In this document: one piece after another, positions 20,341 through 53,811 of the stretch
Position numbering within the stretch: the first letter of the stretch is position 1
How the letters are laid out: every line of letters begins with the position of its first letter
DNA from: Thalia democratica
Taxonomy: Eukaryota
Length of the DNA: 53,811 nt
Direction: 5' to 3'
NCBI GenBank assembly: GCA_965202585.1
Contig: CBDBBG010000062.1
Location: forward strand, 62,001 to 115,811
Made by a program: the position numbers and the translations under genes
The notes under the pieces: generated by a model
What the model was told of the DNA's origin: nothing
The model's database searches: none
What the model saw: the letters and a program-made list of their open reading frames with translations, nothing else

Positions 20341-21164
20341 AAAAACAAACTGATTTTAGTGTTAAATGAAATTTTTAGATTCCCAAAGGGAAGTTTTAGA
20401 TTTTTACTTTTTTGAAAAGTTTGTTTGAACTGAACATGTTAATTTTTGACGCTAATACAAATTAAAACGTCAATAATTTCTCCTTGTATTTTTTTTGCAT
20501 ACCAGACTTGAGAAAAATTCTTAATCTAGTTTCACTATTGTTAACAAAAATTTTTCTTTAAAAAATTGGCTGGGGCTGGAAAATATCTGCTCACAGTTTT
20601 AAAGTCATGCCAATGCTGTCTTTCTTTGTCTTAATTCTAGTATGACTTAATAGATTTAGCACTTGAGTTAGTTTTTTTAAGCAAAAGGTAATACCGTCTT
20701 CTGCTATTGCTGGGTGGTCAGCTTCAAGCACTTCTCCTCTACGTCATTTTTATCGAATACTTTATGATTCCTTTTTTAAACCGTTTCGTTGTATCTAGAG
20801 TATATAAAAAATTAAAAACCACAAACAAATACCATTAAAGCGGTTTTTTTGTTAAAATTAACAAAGTTTTTTTGCGCTACTTACACATATCAGTATACAA
20901 AATCTGTAAAAGAGGTGTAAGTACTTCGAGATTTAAAATATAATAATAATTTTAAAGTTAGGTCAACACTCACTTTTAAAAGCAAACATATTTTTTATAC
21001 ACGATAACGTTTATACTTTTGTTGATAACCTATTATATAAGTTTTAATAAGTTAATCAGATTTTTACGCTTTTTTTCGCTAAAGTTTATATTTTGTTTGT
21101 TTATTATTAATGGATTACATTTTTATTACAATTTATATTAAGGGTCATTTTTGCACGAGGGGAC

Positions 21165-21750
21165 GCTTTTTTGTCATCTGCGAAGAGGTTAATGTTGCTG
21201 CTAACATCAACTTCTGAAGCTATATCATTCATGTAAATAATGAATAATAGTGGGCTAATAACCCCTCCTTGAGGGACTCCATTAAAAACAGGTAAAAATT
21301 ATGAAAATGAGTTGTTAATTACTACTTTTTGAGTTCTATTATTTAGAAACTATTTATTTAGACTGCAATGAATTTTGTATTGCAATAATGCTTTATTTTT
21401 TTTATAAGTTGAGAGACAGAGTCAAAAGCTCTTACTCTGTATATATTACATAGTAGACTTAATGCTTAAAAAAGACACCAACCAAGAGTGTAAGCAATTT
21501 AGTAATTGGAAACAAACGTTTGGTTAGGGAGAAAACCTAATTTTAAATAAAAATAAAGTTATTTAAAAAAAAGATGATCAAGTATTTTCATATAAAATTT
21601 TATGTTCAAATATTCTGCAAAGCTAATTATCATAAAAATTGGTCTCTAATTTGAATGGTTGTATTTGCTACCTTTTTTGTGTATTGGTATTTCAAATAAT
21701 ATTTCTAAAGAATATCTAAAATTATGCAAACGCAAAGTTATGGGAGATCC
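21165..21750 (-). mobile_element. CR1/L2 reverse transcriptase core relic
   Basis: Minus strand, motifs in the correct order: IPIHKKGSKYNHSN*RPI, RAFDSVS, FLNNRTQKVVINNS, GVPQGGVISPLLFIIYMNDI, NLFADD. Confidence 0.92.
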
Positions 21751-44549: not shown

Positions 44550-45720
44550 GTTTAGTTTTTATTTGAGTTTCTAATAAGTTCATGTGGCCACATCTTGAGG
44601 ATAGTTGTCCTCACCCATGATAGTGTAGGTGTGAATTTCAGGGAACCTCTTTCCTCCTGAGGTCTACCTGATTCTTCCATGTGAAGATTGATGGTGTAGG
44701 TGTAAACTTCAAGGTAACTTCTTTCCCCCTGAGGTCTAGTTGATTCCTTCATTTTACTCAGTGAAGGGTAGATCTTATGAGTCCTACTTTTATCACCTAC
44801 ACTTAAATTACTTATAACACAATCGAATAGAGTTAATAGCAATATGAAAATTTACAAAATGTTTGAGATATTTTTATCCGAAAATAGATTAACATTAAAT
44901 TTGAATTTTGCAAACTATTTACTTCTTAAAATCACTAAACAGACATTCACGTATTTTAAGTCAAGTTGGTTACCCATGAGTTTTTTAACGCCTTGCTGGA
45001 ATTAATCCTAAATTGTTTAAATGCCATTAGTCGCCCCGTACATATGTCTCTCCGCTTTGCAGTTGACTTCTAAAGTTTTTAGACATTTTTTCTTTTTACC
45101 ATTTCTGAGTTTACCGAGACAAGTGTTGTTCTTGTCACGGAAGACAAGGGTTCTGAATCAGCAGGGTTGGGTCCAATGGCTTTTAAACTTTGCATTGAAC
45201 ATATCAACAGTGGCCATAAGCTTCAAAAGTTACTGTTTGGTTTCAAACTGTCCACTCATCTGGATTGAAGTCACTGGTCTCTTCTATAGTCAGACCTTAT
45301 TGCGCCAACTATTGTCCAGCGATATGTACCAAATATGGTGAGCATGATTGCAATGTCCCACTTACCCTCTTTTTTGTCAGTTAGAACCTTTGGTTGCCTC
45401 TCTGTTCGACTTTCTTTGATTCTAAATGAATCGAGAGGAGTCATATTATGCTCTTTCCCATTGTCAGAGACGACTACCCGTGGTGTTACAAAACAACTGC
45501 ACCGACTCTGTACAAATGCAATCACTGGCATTGCCTTCTTGTCCGGTATGGGAGTTGCCACAAGAAACCCCGTTCCTTGGTCTTTTATTGTCAGTATGTA
45601 ACGGCAGTTGTTAGAAACTACGTTCATAGGGCCTTCAAGGTCAATATGCCAAAGTTTAATCTTTGGGCCTTCTATGGAAGAACAAAATTACATAATGAAA
45701 ACAATGGTAGGTAAATTAAA
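44550..45720 (-). mobile_element. Gypsy/Ty3 integrase relic and pol C-terminus
   Basis: Minus frame WHIDLEGPMNVVSNNCRYILTIKDQGTGFLVATPIPDK...PRVVVSDNGKE (first two acidic residues of DDE); RPQxER-type repeats near 44620-44740; no LTR seen. Confidence 0.88.
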
Positions 45721-46806: not shown

Positions 46807-47989
46807 TAATAATCATACAGTAATACATAATTGTCAGCTGTTTAATATTCTATCAGTCAATCTCTTTAAATAGATTTTTTAGATCTTTTCTTAAGTTTTG
46901 TTGAAATTTGGTCATGAATCTATTGAATTTCACGTTGCTAATCATGTCAAATACGTCTTTTTCAAATCCTATAATTCGTTGCAAAATGAGGCTGATTTAG
47001 AATTTTAAAATATGCCATGCCAATGCTGTCTCTCTTGTTAGAAAGCGTTAAGAAATAAATGATGATACAGCATGTTTAAAAAAGTATTGTGGAATGTTTT
47101 CTGGTGTTCTAATGATTTTATCATATAAAAGATTAGTTGAATTACTTATGTCATTTGATTAAAACCATTTTTTATTTTATAATTTGACTCCATCTTCTAA
47201 GTGGGCAAGGTTGTTTGATAGTGGGCAAAATTTATTTGTAAAAAAAATGTTTTATATAGATTGAGCTCAACTGTAGTCAAATTGTGTTCTAATACTATTT
47301 ACTGCTTGTATATCACGTCTTGTAAAAGGCATCTTGTTAAATATTATCTGTTAATACCATATTATGTTTTTAAAACCCCGCATTCTGAATGCTAAAATCT
47401 TCAGAACTGTTTGTTCGCACTCTCTGCTGTATTTTTTCTCTAACATATTTCTACAAAAAAAAAGATTCCTAAATAATGAGTTATTTAAAACGTTCATTAC
47501 ATTGAGGACAATATGAATTACATATAAGCCACCTCAGATGCAACTTTTACAAAAAATATGATAACAGCTCAATTTCATAACTGTGCTTGTATAGCATTAA
47601 AATTTTCACGGCAATAATGCATATATTCATTAAATAATTTTTCACTAGCGTTGAAAGAACAGAAACCGTTTAAGGTTGAAATGTTAACATCAAATGTAAC
47701 TTAATCTAAATATATATTTGTTTAAACAGCGTAAAAAACCGGACTTATTTTTAAACTTATTTGAATAAATAAAGTAACTTTAATTCGTTGTTTTCTAATA
47801 TATTTCATCAGTTTTCAGGCGTAGTTCACCAGCTTAACCAATTTATTTGTACCAAGTTCCATCAGACAATGCTGTATCGGTTCATAGTGGCTTGTTCTGT
47901 TGAAAATATTTCTGTTGTGTTGCGTTCTTCTTAAGCAAGAACAGTTAAAATAACTTAAAGTTAAATAAGTAAAAACTATTCAAGCAAGT

Positions 47990-48880
47990 TTTCAAAACAC
48001 TTAGGCTTTTCTTGATCTACGTTAAACTTTTTGTAAAGTTCAATCAGCATGGTGCTGTGTGGAAACAGTCGCTTCCTGCGGACTTGAAAATTTCCAATCT
48101 TGTTCTTGACACAATTTAAGGAATTCTCGTGTCCATCAAGTCAATGTCAAACTTCAGGATCAGTGGTCTATTCTTCGTGCTCCGTCATTGTTAAGTATGA
48201 CAACGAAGTTGTTCTGTTTTGTGGTTTTGAGATACTGACTGCCTTACTTAACACAATTTTGTTCTGAGTGACGTCATACTGTGTATTTTTTGATGAATTT
48301 ATTGTTGTTCTTCTTTTTGGTATCTTTTGATCCAAAACTTTTTCCATCATATCCGTCCAGAGATCTCTTTCAAAGTATGGATTTCTGTGACCGAACAGAT
48401 TTCATCATTCTGCTCTTGATATCCTTTTATCAAGCCACGATTTTCTCCTTGTTCCAACCCTTTTTTGTACCAGAAGTTAAGCCTTTGTTGATCTGGTACC
48501 TTTTAGCTCGGTAATGTTAAACAAGTAATCGTCACTTTCTTTGGAGGACACGACCATATATGCCCAAAACGGTATCCTAGTCTGCCGCAATATTTAAAAT
48601 ATCCAAGTATAAGCTCCATGTAAACCTCGGAGCGTATCCGATCATCAATTATTTTAACGGAGTCCAGGTAGCCTATGTAGACCTGTCGTTGTTGGCGATC
48701 CGCAGTCTTTGTACTCTTGAGAGTAAAGTCCGAAAAAAGCAAATTTCCTTGCCATCTTTTCTTGAAATGCATAAAAAGCTCTTGCTCTGTATTTAATTTC
48801 TTCGGGGAAAGCTTCTTTAAATCTTGTTTTCATGTTCTCCTTCACTTTTAGATGCTTTATTTGTTGTAATTAACTTTTAA
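47990..48880 (-). pseudogene. CREBBP-like: Intronless p300/CBP-type histone acetyltransferase (KAT11) domain, frameshifted
   Basis: Stitched minus frames: MKTRF..FPEEIKYRARAFYAFQE-DGKEICFFGLYSQEY...RQVYIGYLDSV...IRSEVYMELILGYFKYCGRLGYRFGHIWSCPP-DDYLF-PDQQRLNFWYKKGL...PYFERDLW...LMDTR-EFLKLCQEQDWKFSS...ST-MLIELY. This is collinear with p300 FPYRTKALFAFEEIDGVDLCFFGMHVQEY...RVYISYLDSV...HIWACPP..DDYIF...RLQEWYKKML...PYFEGDFW...LMDGRDAFL...EFSS...STMCMLVELH. At least seven frameshifts. Confidence 0.93.
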
Positions 48881-49132
48881 AACATACCAACTTTTAAACT
48901 AAAATCTAATAAAATGTTAGCCATTAAAACAGCTATAACAAAATGAAAATGTATGAAAGTAAATTTTGCTTTACTTAAAAATTGCTTGTTAAACTGCATT
49001 GTAACAAAAGCTAACACTAAATTGCCTAGTAAAACTGCTCTACATAATAATGAAATACATATAAACACACTGATTTACTTTAAAAACATTTGCGGGTAGA
49101 AAAGCTTGAACTCTGCCATTGACAATTATTCT

Positions 49133-49270
49133 TGAACATTATAATTTATGTCTTTATAGAGGCTAGTCTTTCCAACCTCCTCTATCATGCTTTCAGTAAA
49201 TGGAAAATTTCGGCAACAAAATCCCATGACTTTGCAAGTTGATCTGACAATATTAAAATTCAATTGTAGA
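49133..49270. repeat. Block duplicated at about 18660-18790
   Basis: aacattat...tgtctttata...ctagtctttccaac...ctatcat...gcaacaaa.tcc.atg.acttgcaagtt.atctgacaata.taaaattcaattgt occurs in both copies. Confidence 0.75.
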
Positions 49271-49389
49271 ATACTGCTTTTCAATTTTATAGCTTTTCCT
49301 CGTCATAAGTATATATATATTTTTTTAATTGTTTAACAAGTTGATCATTTTATGTAGTCCTTAGCAGTTTTCTTAGTTTTTATATAGTT

Positions 49390-50059: not shown

Positions 50060-50535
50060 CATAGCTTTTATGTTCCTGGAGAACTTCTCTGACGTCTTTT
50101 TAACATATGGTAATGTAATGTTTGTTATCATCTGTATTTCCATTTAGTTCTGACTCAAAGTTGTTTTCTTTGTATCTGGTCATCGATAAACTTGGTATTT
50201 TCGCCACTTGTTATTTTGTAGATCTTCTGAGACAAGATTTTTGATTCTGTAATACAGATTTTTAACTAATTTCTCTTCCACGACCGCAGTACACTTGAGT
50301 TATAGTTCATAAGCACACCCGCGCTTGTTGGTTTTTTATATATTGATGTTATGATCTTATTGTATTTATTGCCACCTTTGATCAAGATATGGGAGTTTAC
50401 CTTCTTGACAAGTTTGAATTACAAATTTCATATTTTTTGTGCATTTGTTAAGTATTTCACAACTGATGTATATGTTCTCTGTTTTCGAAAATGCAGAAAA
50501 TGTCGTCAACATATCTGCAATACATTTAAGGCCTT
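50060..50535 (-). mobile_element. PLE reverse transcriptase slice
   Basis: Minus frames YCRYVDDIFCIFEN, GKLPYLD and KPTSAGVLMNYNS; its 5' side is cut by the satellite. Confidence 0.85.
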
Positions 50536-50539
50536 ATAA

Positions 50540-53500
50540 TTTGGTTAAGTAATTCTTTCAACCGTTCATACGGCAATGATGATTTTACTTCTTGGCTTGT
50601 AGTTTGGTCAAGTAATTCTGTCAACCGTTCACACAGCAATGATGATTTTACTTCTTGGCTTGTAGTTTGGTTAAGTAATTCTGTCAACTGTTCACACGGC
50701 AATGATGATTTTACTTATTGGTTTGTAGTTTTGGGTTAAGTAATTCTGTCAAACTGTTCACACGGCAATGATGATTTTACTTATTGGCTTGTAGTTTGGT
50801 TAAGAAATTCTGTTAACCGTTCATACGGCAATGATGATTTTACTTCTTGGCTTGTAGTTTGGTTAAGTAATTCTGTCAACCGTTCATACGGCAATGATGA
50901 TTTTACTTCTTAGCTTGTAGTTTGGTTAAGTAATTCTGTTAACCGTTCACACGGCAATGATGATTTTACTTCTTGGCTTGTAGTTTGGTTAAGTAATTCT
51001 GTCAACTGTTCACACGGCAATGATGATTTTACTTCTTGGCTTGTAGTTTGGTTAAGTAATTCTGTCAACTGTTCACACGGCAATGATGATTTTACTTATG
51101 GCTTGTAGTTTGGTTAAGTAATTCTGTCAACTGTTCATACGGCAATGATGATTTTACTTCTTGGCTTGTAGTTTGGTTAAGTAATTCTGTTAACCGTTCA
51201 CACGGCAATGATGAATTTACTTCTTGGCTTGTAGTTTGGTTAAGTAATTCTGTTAACCGTTCACACGGCAATGATGATTTTACTTCTTAGCTTGTAGTTT
51301 GGTTAAGTAATTCTGTTAACTGTTCACACGGCAATGATGAATTTACTTATTGGTTTGTAGTTTGGTTAAGTAATTCTGTTAACTGTTCATACGGCAATGA
51401 TGATTTTACTTCTTGGCTTGTAGTTTGGTTAAGTAATTCTGTCAGCCGTTCATACGGCAATGATGATTTTACTTCTTGGCTTGTAGTTTGGTTAAGTAAT
51501 TCTGTCAACTGTTCATACGGCAATGATGATTTTACTTCTTAGCTTGTAGTTTGGTTAAGTAATTCTGTCAACTGTTCACACGGCAATGATGATTTTACTT
51601 CTTGGCTTGTAGTTTGGTTAAGTAATTCTGTCAACTGTTACACGGCAATGATGATTTTACTTCTTAGCTTGTAGTTTGGTTAAGTAATTCTGTTAACCGT
51701 TCACACGGCAATGATGAATTTACTTCTTGGCTTGTAGTTTGGTTAAGTAATTCTGTTAACCGTTCACACGGCAATGATGAATTTACTTCTTGGCTTGTAG
51801 TTTGGTTAAGTAATTCTGTCAACTGTTCACACGGCAATGATGATTTTACTTATGGCTTGTAGTTTGGTTAAGTAATTCTGTCAACCGTTCATACGGCAAT
51901 GATGATTTTACTTCTTGGCTTGTAGTTTGGTTAAGTAATTCTGTCAACCGTTCACACGGCAATGATGATTTTACTTCTTGGCTTGTAGTTTGGTTAAGTA
52001 ATTCTGTCAACTGTTCATACGGCAATGATGATTTTACTTCTTGGCTTGTAGTTTGGTTAAGTAATTCTGTTAACCGTTCATACGGCAATGATGAATTTAC
52101 TTATTGGCTTGTAGTTTGGTTAAGTAATTCTGTTAACCGTTCACACGGCAATGATGAATTTACTTCTTAGCTTGTAGTTTGGTTAAGTAATTCTGTTAAC
52201 TGTTCACACGGCAATGATGAATTTACTTATTGGTTTGTAGTTTTGGTTAAGTAATTCTGTCAACCGTTCATACGGCAATGATGATTTTACTTCTTAGCTT
52301 GTAGTTTGGTTAAGTAATTCTGTTAACTGTTCACACGGCAATGATGATTTTACTTCTTGGCTTGTAGTTTGGTTAAGTAATTCTGTCAACCGTTCACACG
52401 GCAATGATGATTTTACTTCTTGCTTGTAGTTTGGTTAAGTAATTCTGTTAACCGTTCACACGGCAATGATGATTTTACTTCTTGGCTTGTAGTTTGGTTA
52501 AGTAATTCTGTTAACCGTTCACACGGCAATGATGATTTTACTTCTTGGCTTGTAGTTTGGTTAAGTAATTCTGTTAACCGTTCACACGGCAATGATGATT
52601 TTACTTCTTAGCTTGTAGTTTGGTTAAGTAATTCTGTTAACTGTTCACACGGCAATGATGATTTTACTTCTTAGCTTGTAGTTTGGTTAAGTAATTTTTT
52701 AACTGTTCACACGGCAATGATGAATTTACTTATTGGTTTGTAGTTTGGTTAAGTAATTCTGTCAACCGTTCATACGGCAATGATGAATTTACTTCTTAGC
52801 TTGTAGTTTGGTTAAGTAATTCTGTTAACTGTTCACACGGCAATGAGGAATTTACTTCTTGGCTTGTAGTTTGGTTAAGTAATTCTGTCAACCGTTCATA
52901 CGGCAATAATGATTTTACTTCTTGGCTTGTAGTTTGGTTAAGTAATTCTGTCAACCGTTCACACGGCAATGATGATTTTACTTCTTGGCTTGTAGTTTGG
53001 TTAAGTAATTCTGTCAACTGTTCAAACGGCAATAATGAATTTACTTATTGGTTTGTAGTTTGGTTAAGTAATTCTGTTAACCGTTCACACGGCAATGATG
53101 AATTTACTTCTTGGCTTGTAGTTTGGTTAAGTAATTCTGTCAACTGTTCACACGGCAATGATGATTTTACTTATTGGCTTGTAGTTTGGTTAAGTAATTC
53201 TGTCAACTGTTCATACGGCAATGATGATTTACTTCTTAGCTTGTAGTTTGGTTAAGTAATTCTGTCAACTGTTCACACGGCAATGATGATTTTACTTCTT
53301 GGCTTGTAGTTTGGTTAAGTAATTCTGTCAACTGTTCACACGGCAATAATGATTTTACTTCTTAGCTTGTAGTTTGGTTAAGTAATTCTGTCAACTGTTC
53401 ACACGGCAATGATGAATTTACTTATTGGTTTGTAGTTTGGTTAAGTAATTCTGTCAACTGTTCACACGGCAATGATGATTTTACTTCTTGGCTTGTAGTT

Positions 53501-53811
53501 TGGTTAAGTAATTCTGTCAACTGTTCACACGGCAATAATGATTTTACTTCTTAGCTTGTAGTTTGGTTAAGTAATTCTGTTAACTGTTCACACGGCAATG
53601 ATGAATTTACTTATTGGTTTGTAGTTTGGTTAAGTAATTCTGTTAACTGTTCACACGGCAATGATGAATTTACTTCTTGGCTTGTAGTTTGGTTAAGTAA
53701 TTCTGTCAACTGTTACACGGCAATGATGATTTTACTTCTTAGCTTGTAGTTGGTTAAGTAATTCTGTTAACCGTTCACACGGCAATGATGAATTTACTTC
53801 TTGCTTGTAGT
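50540..53811. repeat. 63-bp satellite/minisatellite, about 52 units, running off the window end
   Basis: Unit ggttaagtaattctgt(c/t)aac(c/t)gttca(c/t)acggcaatgatga(t/a)tttactt(c/a)tt(g/a)g(c/t)ttgtagttt; 3272 bp / 63 is about 52; no spacers. Confidence 0.98.

Follow-up and report, generated by a model that had tools for sequence, protein, structure and literature searches.

A dead retrocopy in Thalia democratica and its source, a host gene family that likely joins a BET-type bromodomain to a p300/CBP acetyltransferase domain

A broken KAT11 acetyltransferase sequence in a 53,811-nucleotide stretch of the Thalia democratica genome (the window) was copied back, already spliced, from the transcript of a host gene and is now dead, an ordinary pseudogene. 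Our main finding concerns the family from which it was copied. These host genes appear to encode a bromodomain, likely of the BET type, in frame ahead of a p300/CBP acetyltransferase (HAT) domain that is without RING, PHD, ZZ, TAZ2 and much of the autoinhibitory loop. We give a probability of roughly 70% to this reading, in which the product is a predicted self-reinforcing read-write enzyme.

Six-frame translation of positions 47700-49100 located the KAT11 domain of the window on the minus strand at 47992-48862, spread over three frames. Two window open reading frames (ORFs) matched Pfam HAT_KAT11 (E 1.2e-8 and 0.0023), and a sister copy with less damage matched solved p300/CBP HAT chains at E ~1e-36. 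The original prediction of a near-complete KAT11 domain was thus right as to the domain but not as to its state: the match to the crystallised p300 domain begins at position 45 of the latter, leaving the N-terminus missing, and gene-model alignment placed nine frameshifts. As had also been predicted, the copy contains no intron and has no bromodomain, PHD, ZZ or TAZ beside it. When X was read at each break, the expected equivalents of p300 D1399, S1400, R1410, W1436, W1466 and Y1467 were all present, and the autoinhibitory-loop segment is indeed shorter, with 49 residues compared to 80-86 in CBPs. The p300 residue numbers applied here to positions of the retrocopy and of the family are, D1399 excepted, those that we take to be correct. 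D1399 is named for p300 in one published report (PMC10366142).

A DNA search of the genome recovered two further intronless copies, at C71:25.8 kb (97%) and C5:84.13 Mb (94%), together with many loci that match the window copy as separate pieces (70-84%). Spliced alignment against the C6:28.80 Mb locus joined seven exons, with six GT-AG introns precisely gone; a seventh apparent intron lies past the end of homology and was discarded. Each of the six lost introns has a counterpart in the host CBP gene (C10) that agrees with it in residue and phase. By search and spliced alignment, 47992-48862 (minus strand) is a processed pseudogene of a KAT11 HAT gene, with seven parent exons joined, both ends truncated and the frame shifted. 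Read along the minus strand, it begins at the 5′ truncation point, 48862, in the 3′ end of parent exon 5 (48823-48862), whose junction with the next exon (48823/48822, phase 2) is common to host CBP. The equivalent of exon 6 follows (48717-48822; junction 48717/48716, phase 0), then that of exon 7 (48576-48716; junction 48576/48575, phase 2), which carries the D1399/S1400 and R1410 equivalents. Exon 8 (48443-48575) holds the equivalents of W1436 and W1466/Y1467 and a frame break common to all three retrocopies, which is found also in contigs of two public runs. Exon 9 (48214-48442) contains the shortened loop segment, exon 10 spans 48067-48213, and the copy is cut in the start of exon 11 (47992-48066), where the HAT domain ends. 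The C5:84.13 Mb sister continues past this 3′ cut as far as a stop codon.

The window copy differs from its sisters by ten single-base indels of its own, and none of them occurs in contigs of two public runs; some may therefore be assembly errors. The intronless form is also present, as DNA, in contigs from two public studies, and the three public runs with matches behaved as DNA contigs. Among the public runs listed for the parent locus none was RNA, a result that carries no information on expression. Excluding codons near breaks and a frame-slipped stretch, dN/dS among the three retrocopies was 0.76, 0.99 and 1.40, with only 4-14 differences and wide intervals. No poly(A) tail or target-site duplication was seen in the retrocopies, whose 3′ ends are cut or LINE-interrupted. 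We propose that the retrocopy was made once by reverse transcriptase, was 5′-truncated, and would then have undergone duplication within single-strand repeat mosaics. It is valuable because it proves splicing of the family's HAT exons in a heritable cell lineage.

In a HAT tree, the retrocopies nest inside the family (98/99), with subfamily A (95/94); a second tree was built with 14 redundant or long-branch rows left out. A clade of the retrocopy and host CBP was rejected (p-AU 3e-76), so the tree comparison, like the HAT identities of the window copy (37% to host CBP and 67% to subfamily A), places it in a separate host family. Between the retrocopy and subfamily A, dS is ~0.7 and dN/dS 0.24-0.26. 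These values agree with the earlier expectation of a functional, compact and divergent source that is not canonical CBP. The direct parent was not found in the assembly, where the best exons are 80-87% identical; the same dS and dN/dS values indicate that it was a functional paralog. A word-indexed protein search with the N-terminal retrocopy ORF gave no match among longer proteins; the C-terminal ORF gave one match, a 198-residue protein that maps to a tail exon of the C5 array. Host CBP itself is 66% identical in its HAT domain to Ciona savignyi and 44-58% identical to other named CBPs, in a reference set that contained no cnidarian. This identity and that of the host BET exon given below make a tunicate host likely, rather than a cnidarian one.

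It had been suspected that a mobile element or an endogenous virus brought in the KAT11 sequence as cargo, and the sequence is intronless, adjoins a dispersed repeat and lies among transposon slices. We consider the chance that a transposon or endogenous virus carried a compact KAT11 to be practically negligible, since the exact removal of six host introns at CBP positions and the nesting of the retrocopy mark a spliced copy of a host multi-exon family. Positions 48863-49290 (minus strand) are an old copy of a dispersed non-coding repeat with at least 40 matches, and form a 5′ flank common to the three retrocopies, while the 3′ flank (47097-47991, minus strand) is shared with one other copy alone, which this contig also carries (C71:25.5-27.7 kb). 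KAT11 is absent from the examined copies of this ~4.3 kb repeat, and the paralogous site at C5:83.915 Mb has the 5′ flank and no KAT11. In place of intact intronless copies with element ends or viral genes, we found only three broken copies, and the flank repeats examined lack the KAT11 gene. Transposon Pfam matches occur in two of the 142 window ORFs, an integrase (rve) fragment at 45274-45687 and a reverse transcriptase fragment at 21110-21298, both on the minus strand, as is the retrocopy; these ORFs yielded transposon fragments only and no viral gene families.

An older relative of a non-coding dispersed element flanks the retrocopy. This element, 4.35 kb long at C9:39.633-39.637 Mb (L210:1999-6348), is 95-97% identical between contigs, contains 316-bp repeats and lacks any ORF of 110 codons.

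Carriage by a mobile element or virus might also be argued from a separate KAT11 at C2:60.74 Mb, which has a single exon and is far more divergent, but the window copy shares no more than 20-21% identity with the single-exon KAT11 genes of C2 and C8. The C2 gene (C2:60.737 Mb; L075:1252-2190, minus strand) is intact, encodes 313 residues and is 24% identical to host CBP. It keeps the Asp, Arg and Trp-Tyr positions, has lost W1436, and has an Atlas score of 0.94 to mostly nematode stand-alone KAT11 clusters; its single-sequence fold has a pLDDT of 39. Three relatives lie in a kelch-gene array at C8:5.28-5.33 Mb. The C2 gene is closer than the window copy to the stand-alone HAT of the original prediction.

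A PF08214 profile search of the genome gave 43 KAT11 matches. We modelled 42 intron-bearing loci, of which 27 belong to subfamily B, seven to A, four to C and three to D, and one is decayed; most lie within a 1.2-Mb array at C5:10.5-11.75 Mb, in both orientations. The gene at C6:28.80 Mb has an open 544-codon frame in 11 exons, with an ATG, a three-exon bromodomain, a basic linker and the whole HAT domain. Since the family carries this N-terminal bromodomain, the source gene was not, as had been supposed, a stand-alone HAT. Neither stop nor frameshift was found in 23 of the 27 B loci, and 22 of the 27 also retain the last HAT exon, although for two of these 22, found on small contigs, haplotype duplication is possible. 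Five of the seven A loci are clean, so that 27 of 34 A and B loci have an unbroken bromodomain-to-acetyltransferase frame. The HAT exons of subfamily C are largely open, and in the three loci of subfamily D the bromodomain is reduced to a remnant. When RING/PHD and ZZ/TAZ2 of host CBP were used as queries against 38 stretches, they matched only the CBP locus on C10. The autoinhibitory-loop segment has 47 residues in the family versus 80-86 in CBPs. The genes end in lysine-rich tails with a ~90-residue repeat, and tails have been swapped between subfamilies. This C-terminal module (L036:2917-4440 and the tails of the C5 array) exists in at least three variants, with further copies as separate tail exons; it is blank in Pfam and gave no usable Atlas match.

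All 26 family copies tallied keep the equivalents of D1399, R1410, W1436, Q1455, W1466, Y1467, E1505 and D1507, and the bromodomain pocket Tyr; the acetyl-lysine Asn is present in 25 of the 26. The Y1394 position is Asn in subfamily A, D1628 is lost in all copies and D1625 in B and C, and the WPF shelf of the bromodomain is altered in A and B; because of these changes, activity or binding may be changed. Between subfamilies dN/dS is 0.25-0.45, and for the HAT domain within subfamilies it is 0.34-0.38, while the bromodomain within B is weakly constrained (0.70-0.79). B copies carry 0-0.6 indels per kb in exons versus 1.2-16 in introns. Judged from these sequence comparisons, the HAT family is under purifying selection with its catalytic residues kept.

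The bromodomain was compared with those of host CBP and of the host BET gene at C6:72.45 Mb, which encodes BD1, BD2 and ET and of which one exon shows 70-72% identity with named proteins of ascidians and 59-65% with those of fish. Two phase-0 introns and a middle exon of 138 nt are common to the family and host BET; of these introns, only the first is present in host CBP. Identity is 42-46% to host BET BD1 versus 29-34% to host CBP, and eight of eight family bromodomains score 23-36 bits higher with a BD1 profile than with a CBP profile. In a free bromodomain tree, from which four BD1-like loci with unreliable exon-1 models were left out, the family groups with BET BD1 (86/91). Among single-domain PDB entries, exons 1 and 2 best match BD1 of BRD2/3/4/T, exon 1 weakly (E 0.04-0.3); by whole-chain score, the top PDB match of exon 2 is polybromo-1. 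BET proteins are marked by two bromodomains and ET. Each family locus has one bromodomain, and ET matches in the genome occur only at C6:72.4 Mb and on C7.

The family could instead consist of trimmed CBP paralogs that kept their own, diverged bromodomain, lost RING/PHD and came to resemble BET through drift and the gain of one intron. In CBP a bromodomain already precedes the HAT domain, with a first intron common to CBP and BET, and a clade of family and CBP bromodomains was not rejected (AU test, 113 columns, p 0.235). At 16 columns diagnostic of BET versus CBP, subfamily C is ambiguous (4:4 and 3:4), and only one of eight fusion rows is individually significant. Nevertheless, descent from CBP paralogs would require that an intron arose independently in precisely the position and phase that it has in BET, so as to yield an identical exon length of 138 nt, and identity, profile score and free tree all fall on the side of BD1. 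In addition, many BD1-like genes without HAT have these two introns, as expected of a BET module that is being duplicated: the genome contains 135 bromodomain matches, and both BET intron positions are retained in nine of 13 other modelled bromodomain loci, in one case with a one-codon shift. This argues that the BD1 module was copied repeatedly. We therefore rate a CBP-paralog origin as highly unlikely, and the family bromodomain was likely taken from BET BD1.

Bromodomain genes form large clusters at C2:11.3-12.1, C2:60.8-60.9, C4:15.9-16.9, 62-66 and 97.5, and C5:26.3-26.5 and 77-79 Mb. Sampled cluster bromodomains are BET-BD1-like, and the genes at C4:62-66 Mb have two bromodomains with no ET match nearby. 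On C7, a 296-residue open frame at 11.639 Mb has three ET (BET extra-terminal) domain matches. On the minus strand at C5:5.70-5.72 Mb, exons of a ubiquitin-specific protease (Pfam UCH, E 9e-15) lie 5-7 kb downstream of BET-BD1-like exons and in the same orientation; this may be a second BD1 fusion, with a deubiquitinase as partner.

For the origin of the fusion, we consider it very probable that the first three BET exons, encoding BD1, were duplicated many times, and that one copy became joined through a short basic linker to CBP HAT exons before tandem amplification. Bromodomain and HAT exons would, with similarly high confidence, be spliced into one mRNA. The linker introns of subfamily B are short (320-324 nt), and GT/AG sites are present at the linker introns in all 27 B and seven A models. 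In subfamily A, residues 90 to 236 enclose no Met, and the HAT domain therefore has no separate start. AATAAA, though expected in AT-rich DNA, occurs in the linker introns of 27 of 27 B loci and leaves room for early termination. The retrocopy ends short of the bromodomain-HAT joint.

RING, TAZ2 and the loop are described as autoinhibitory in p300, and their disruption as activating (PMC9755262; PMC10475075). According to published accounts, engineered BRD4-p300 mimics BRD4-NUT condensates and transcription through HAT-dependent feedback, with one stripped form toxic to cells (PMC10366142), and BRDT BD1 acts with NUT-activated p300 in H4 hyperacetylation of spermatids (PMC9103113). From the absence or shortening of RING, TAZ2 and the loop, together with these BRD4-p300 and BRDT-NUT-p300 precedents, we infer a factor-independent read-write amplifier. 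In the proposed sequence of events, to which we give about an even chance, BD1 would bind acetylated H4, the de-repressed HAT domain would acetylate nearby nucleosomes, and the new sites would spread the mark without input from transcription factors. For a retrocopy to be inherited, its source must be expressed in the germline or in totipotent cells, and the intact genes would thus encode a de-repressed read-and-write acetylation amplifier that acts, probably, in the germline. As to its use there, hyperacetylation of sperm chromatin is one example; we lean slightly against such a use.

Compared to p300/CBP (KAT3, Pfam HAT_KAT11), the intact family has the whole catalytic domain, the catalytic residues and the six CBP intron positions. 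It differs in the absence of RING, PHD, ZZ and TAZ2, in models that start at the bromodomain and so have no TAZ1/KIX, in the shorter loop, in a bromodomain of BET type and in its ~40 loci, whereas one CBP has been reported for non-vertebrate chordates (10.1101/2020.09.08.287045). With the BRD4-NUT/p300 loop and engineered BRD4-p300 (PMC10366142, PMC9755262), it shares a BET bromodomain coupled to p300 HAT and a predicted feed-forward acetylation. Unlike these, the family is inherited, multi-copy and under purifying selection, with one bromodomain rather than two, no ET, no NUT bridge and none of the disordered or factor-binding regions of p300. The BRDT-NUT-p300 system of mammalian spermatids likewise pairs a BD1 reader with a p300 writer (PMC9103113), but through three separate proteins, compared to one predicted polypeptide with a presumptive germline role here. 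Planarian Smed-cbp-1 to -5 are a comparable lineage-specific multiplication of CBP, although these five genes keep most CBP domains and the ~40 loci described here have a swapped reader and stripped regulation.

Among 184 HAT relatives (the best 150 of 1377 matches, plus cluster members), 91 have a bromodomain and none is clearly BET-type; one of the 91 scored BET above CBP, by 0.5 bit. Exact-word searches of metagenomes and viral contigs, which are weak, gave no relative. The portions of the literature covered, mostly open-access, contained no natural BET-KAT11 fusion and no tunicate expansion. On these incomplete checks, the large selected family would appear to be a new reader-writer architecture. 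Coupling of a BET bromodomain to active p300 is otherwise known from aggressive cancer and engineered constructs. If our reading is true, a natural, selected, multi-copy version exists, which would mean that evolution can domesticate a loop of the BRD4-NUT/p300 type. It would also supply a compact 500-550-residue reader-writer core for the study of acetylation spread and its limits, and, for an invertebrate chordate, a candidate enzyme behind the hyperacetylation of sperm chromatin.

The retrocopy lies in a strand-polarised setting and, as had been suggested, is archived in the orientation that the repeat slices around it also have. In 50 of 57 repeat pairs of the contig, the two members are direct where both lie to one side of an assembly gap and inverted where the gap separates them, and 44 of the 45 fragments shared by C5:84.11-84.15 Mb and C71 obey one polarity. 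Such mosaics around the retrocopies look like uni-strand piRNA clusters. Processed pseudogenes in piRNA clusters resemble the window copy in that it is spliced, truncated, disabled and in a strand-polarised mosaic, and differ in that its direct parent is missing from the assembly and the cluster is putative.

This setting bears on a selfish origin, in which the family would be a Stellate-like germline expansion, a driver on sperm chromatin, restrained by antisense piRNAs supplied by retrocopies in polarised clusters. Stellate itself provides a precedent (PMC11745323), the array is young and tandem (1-4% divergence), all three retrocopies are in polarised mosaics, and 78-90 of 847 26-nt retrocopy windows match subfamily A at three or fewer mismatches while none match host CBP. 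However, there are no perfect 26-nt matches, subfamily B, the largest, is reached by only nine of the 847 windows, and, measured against the array, the retrocopy is old (dS ~0.7 to A). In primates, moreover, one study suggests that most cluster pseudogenes have little regulatory weight (PMC6461890). These matches allow, but do not show, a regulatory effect of retrocopy-derived guides on subfamily A, and we regard the selfish expansion as improbable. A bolder extension of our preferred reading, that of a BET-type reader joined to a p300/CBP writer, is tentative and in our judgement rather unlikely as a whole. It holds that this tunicate lineage might possess an exon-shuffled, heritable, single-chain equivalent of BRD4-NUT/p300, with dozens of copies flooding germline or stem-cell chromatin with acetylation and held by antisense piRNAs from their own retrocopies, and with BD1 also grafted onto other chromatin enzymes such as the deubiquitinase.

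Outside the window, at C71:38623-38722, repeat polarity and AT skew flip at the assembly gap, which points to a cluster with two divergent arms or else to a scaffold piece placed in the wrong orientation. Within the window, a 63-bp satellite occupies 50533-53811 and reaches the contig end, with 52 copies, 94% matches and a higher-order period of 377 bp.
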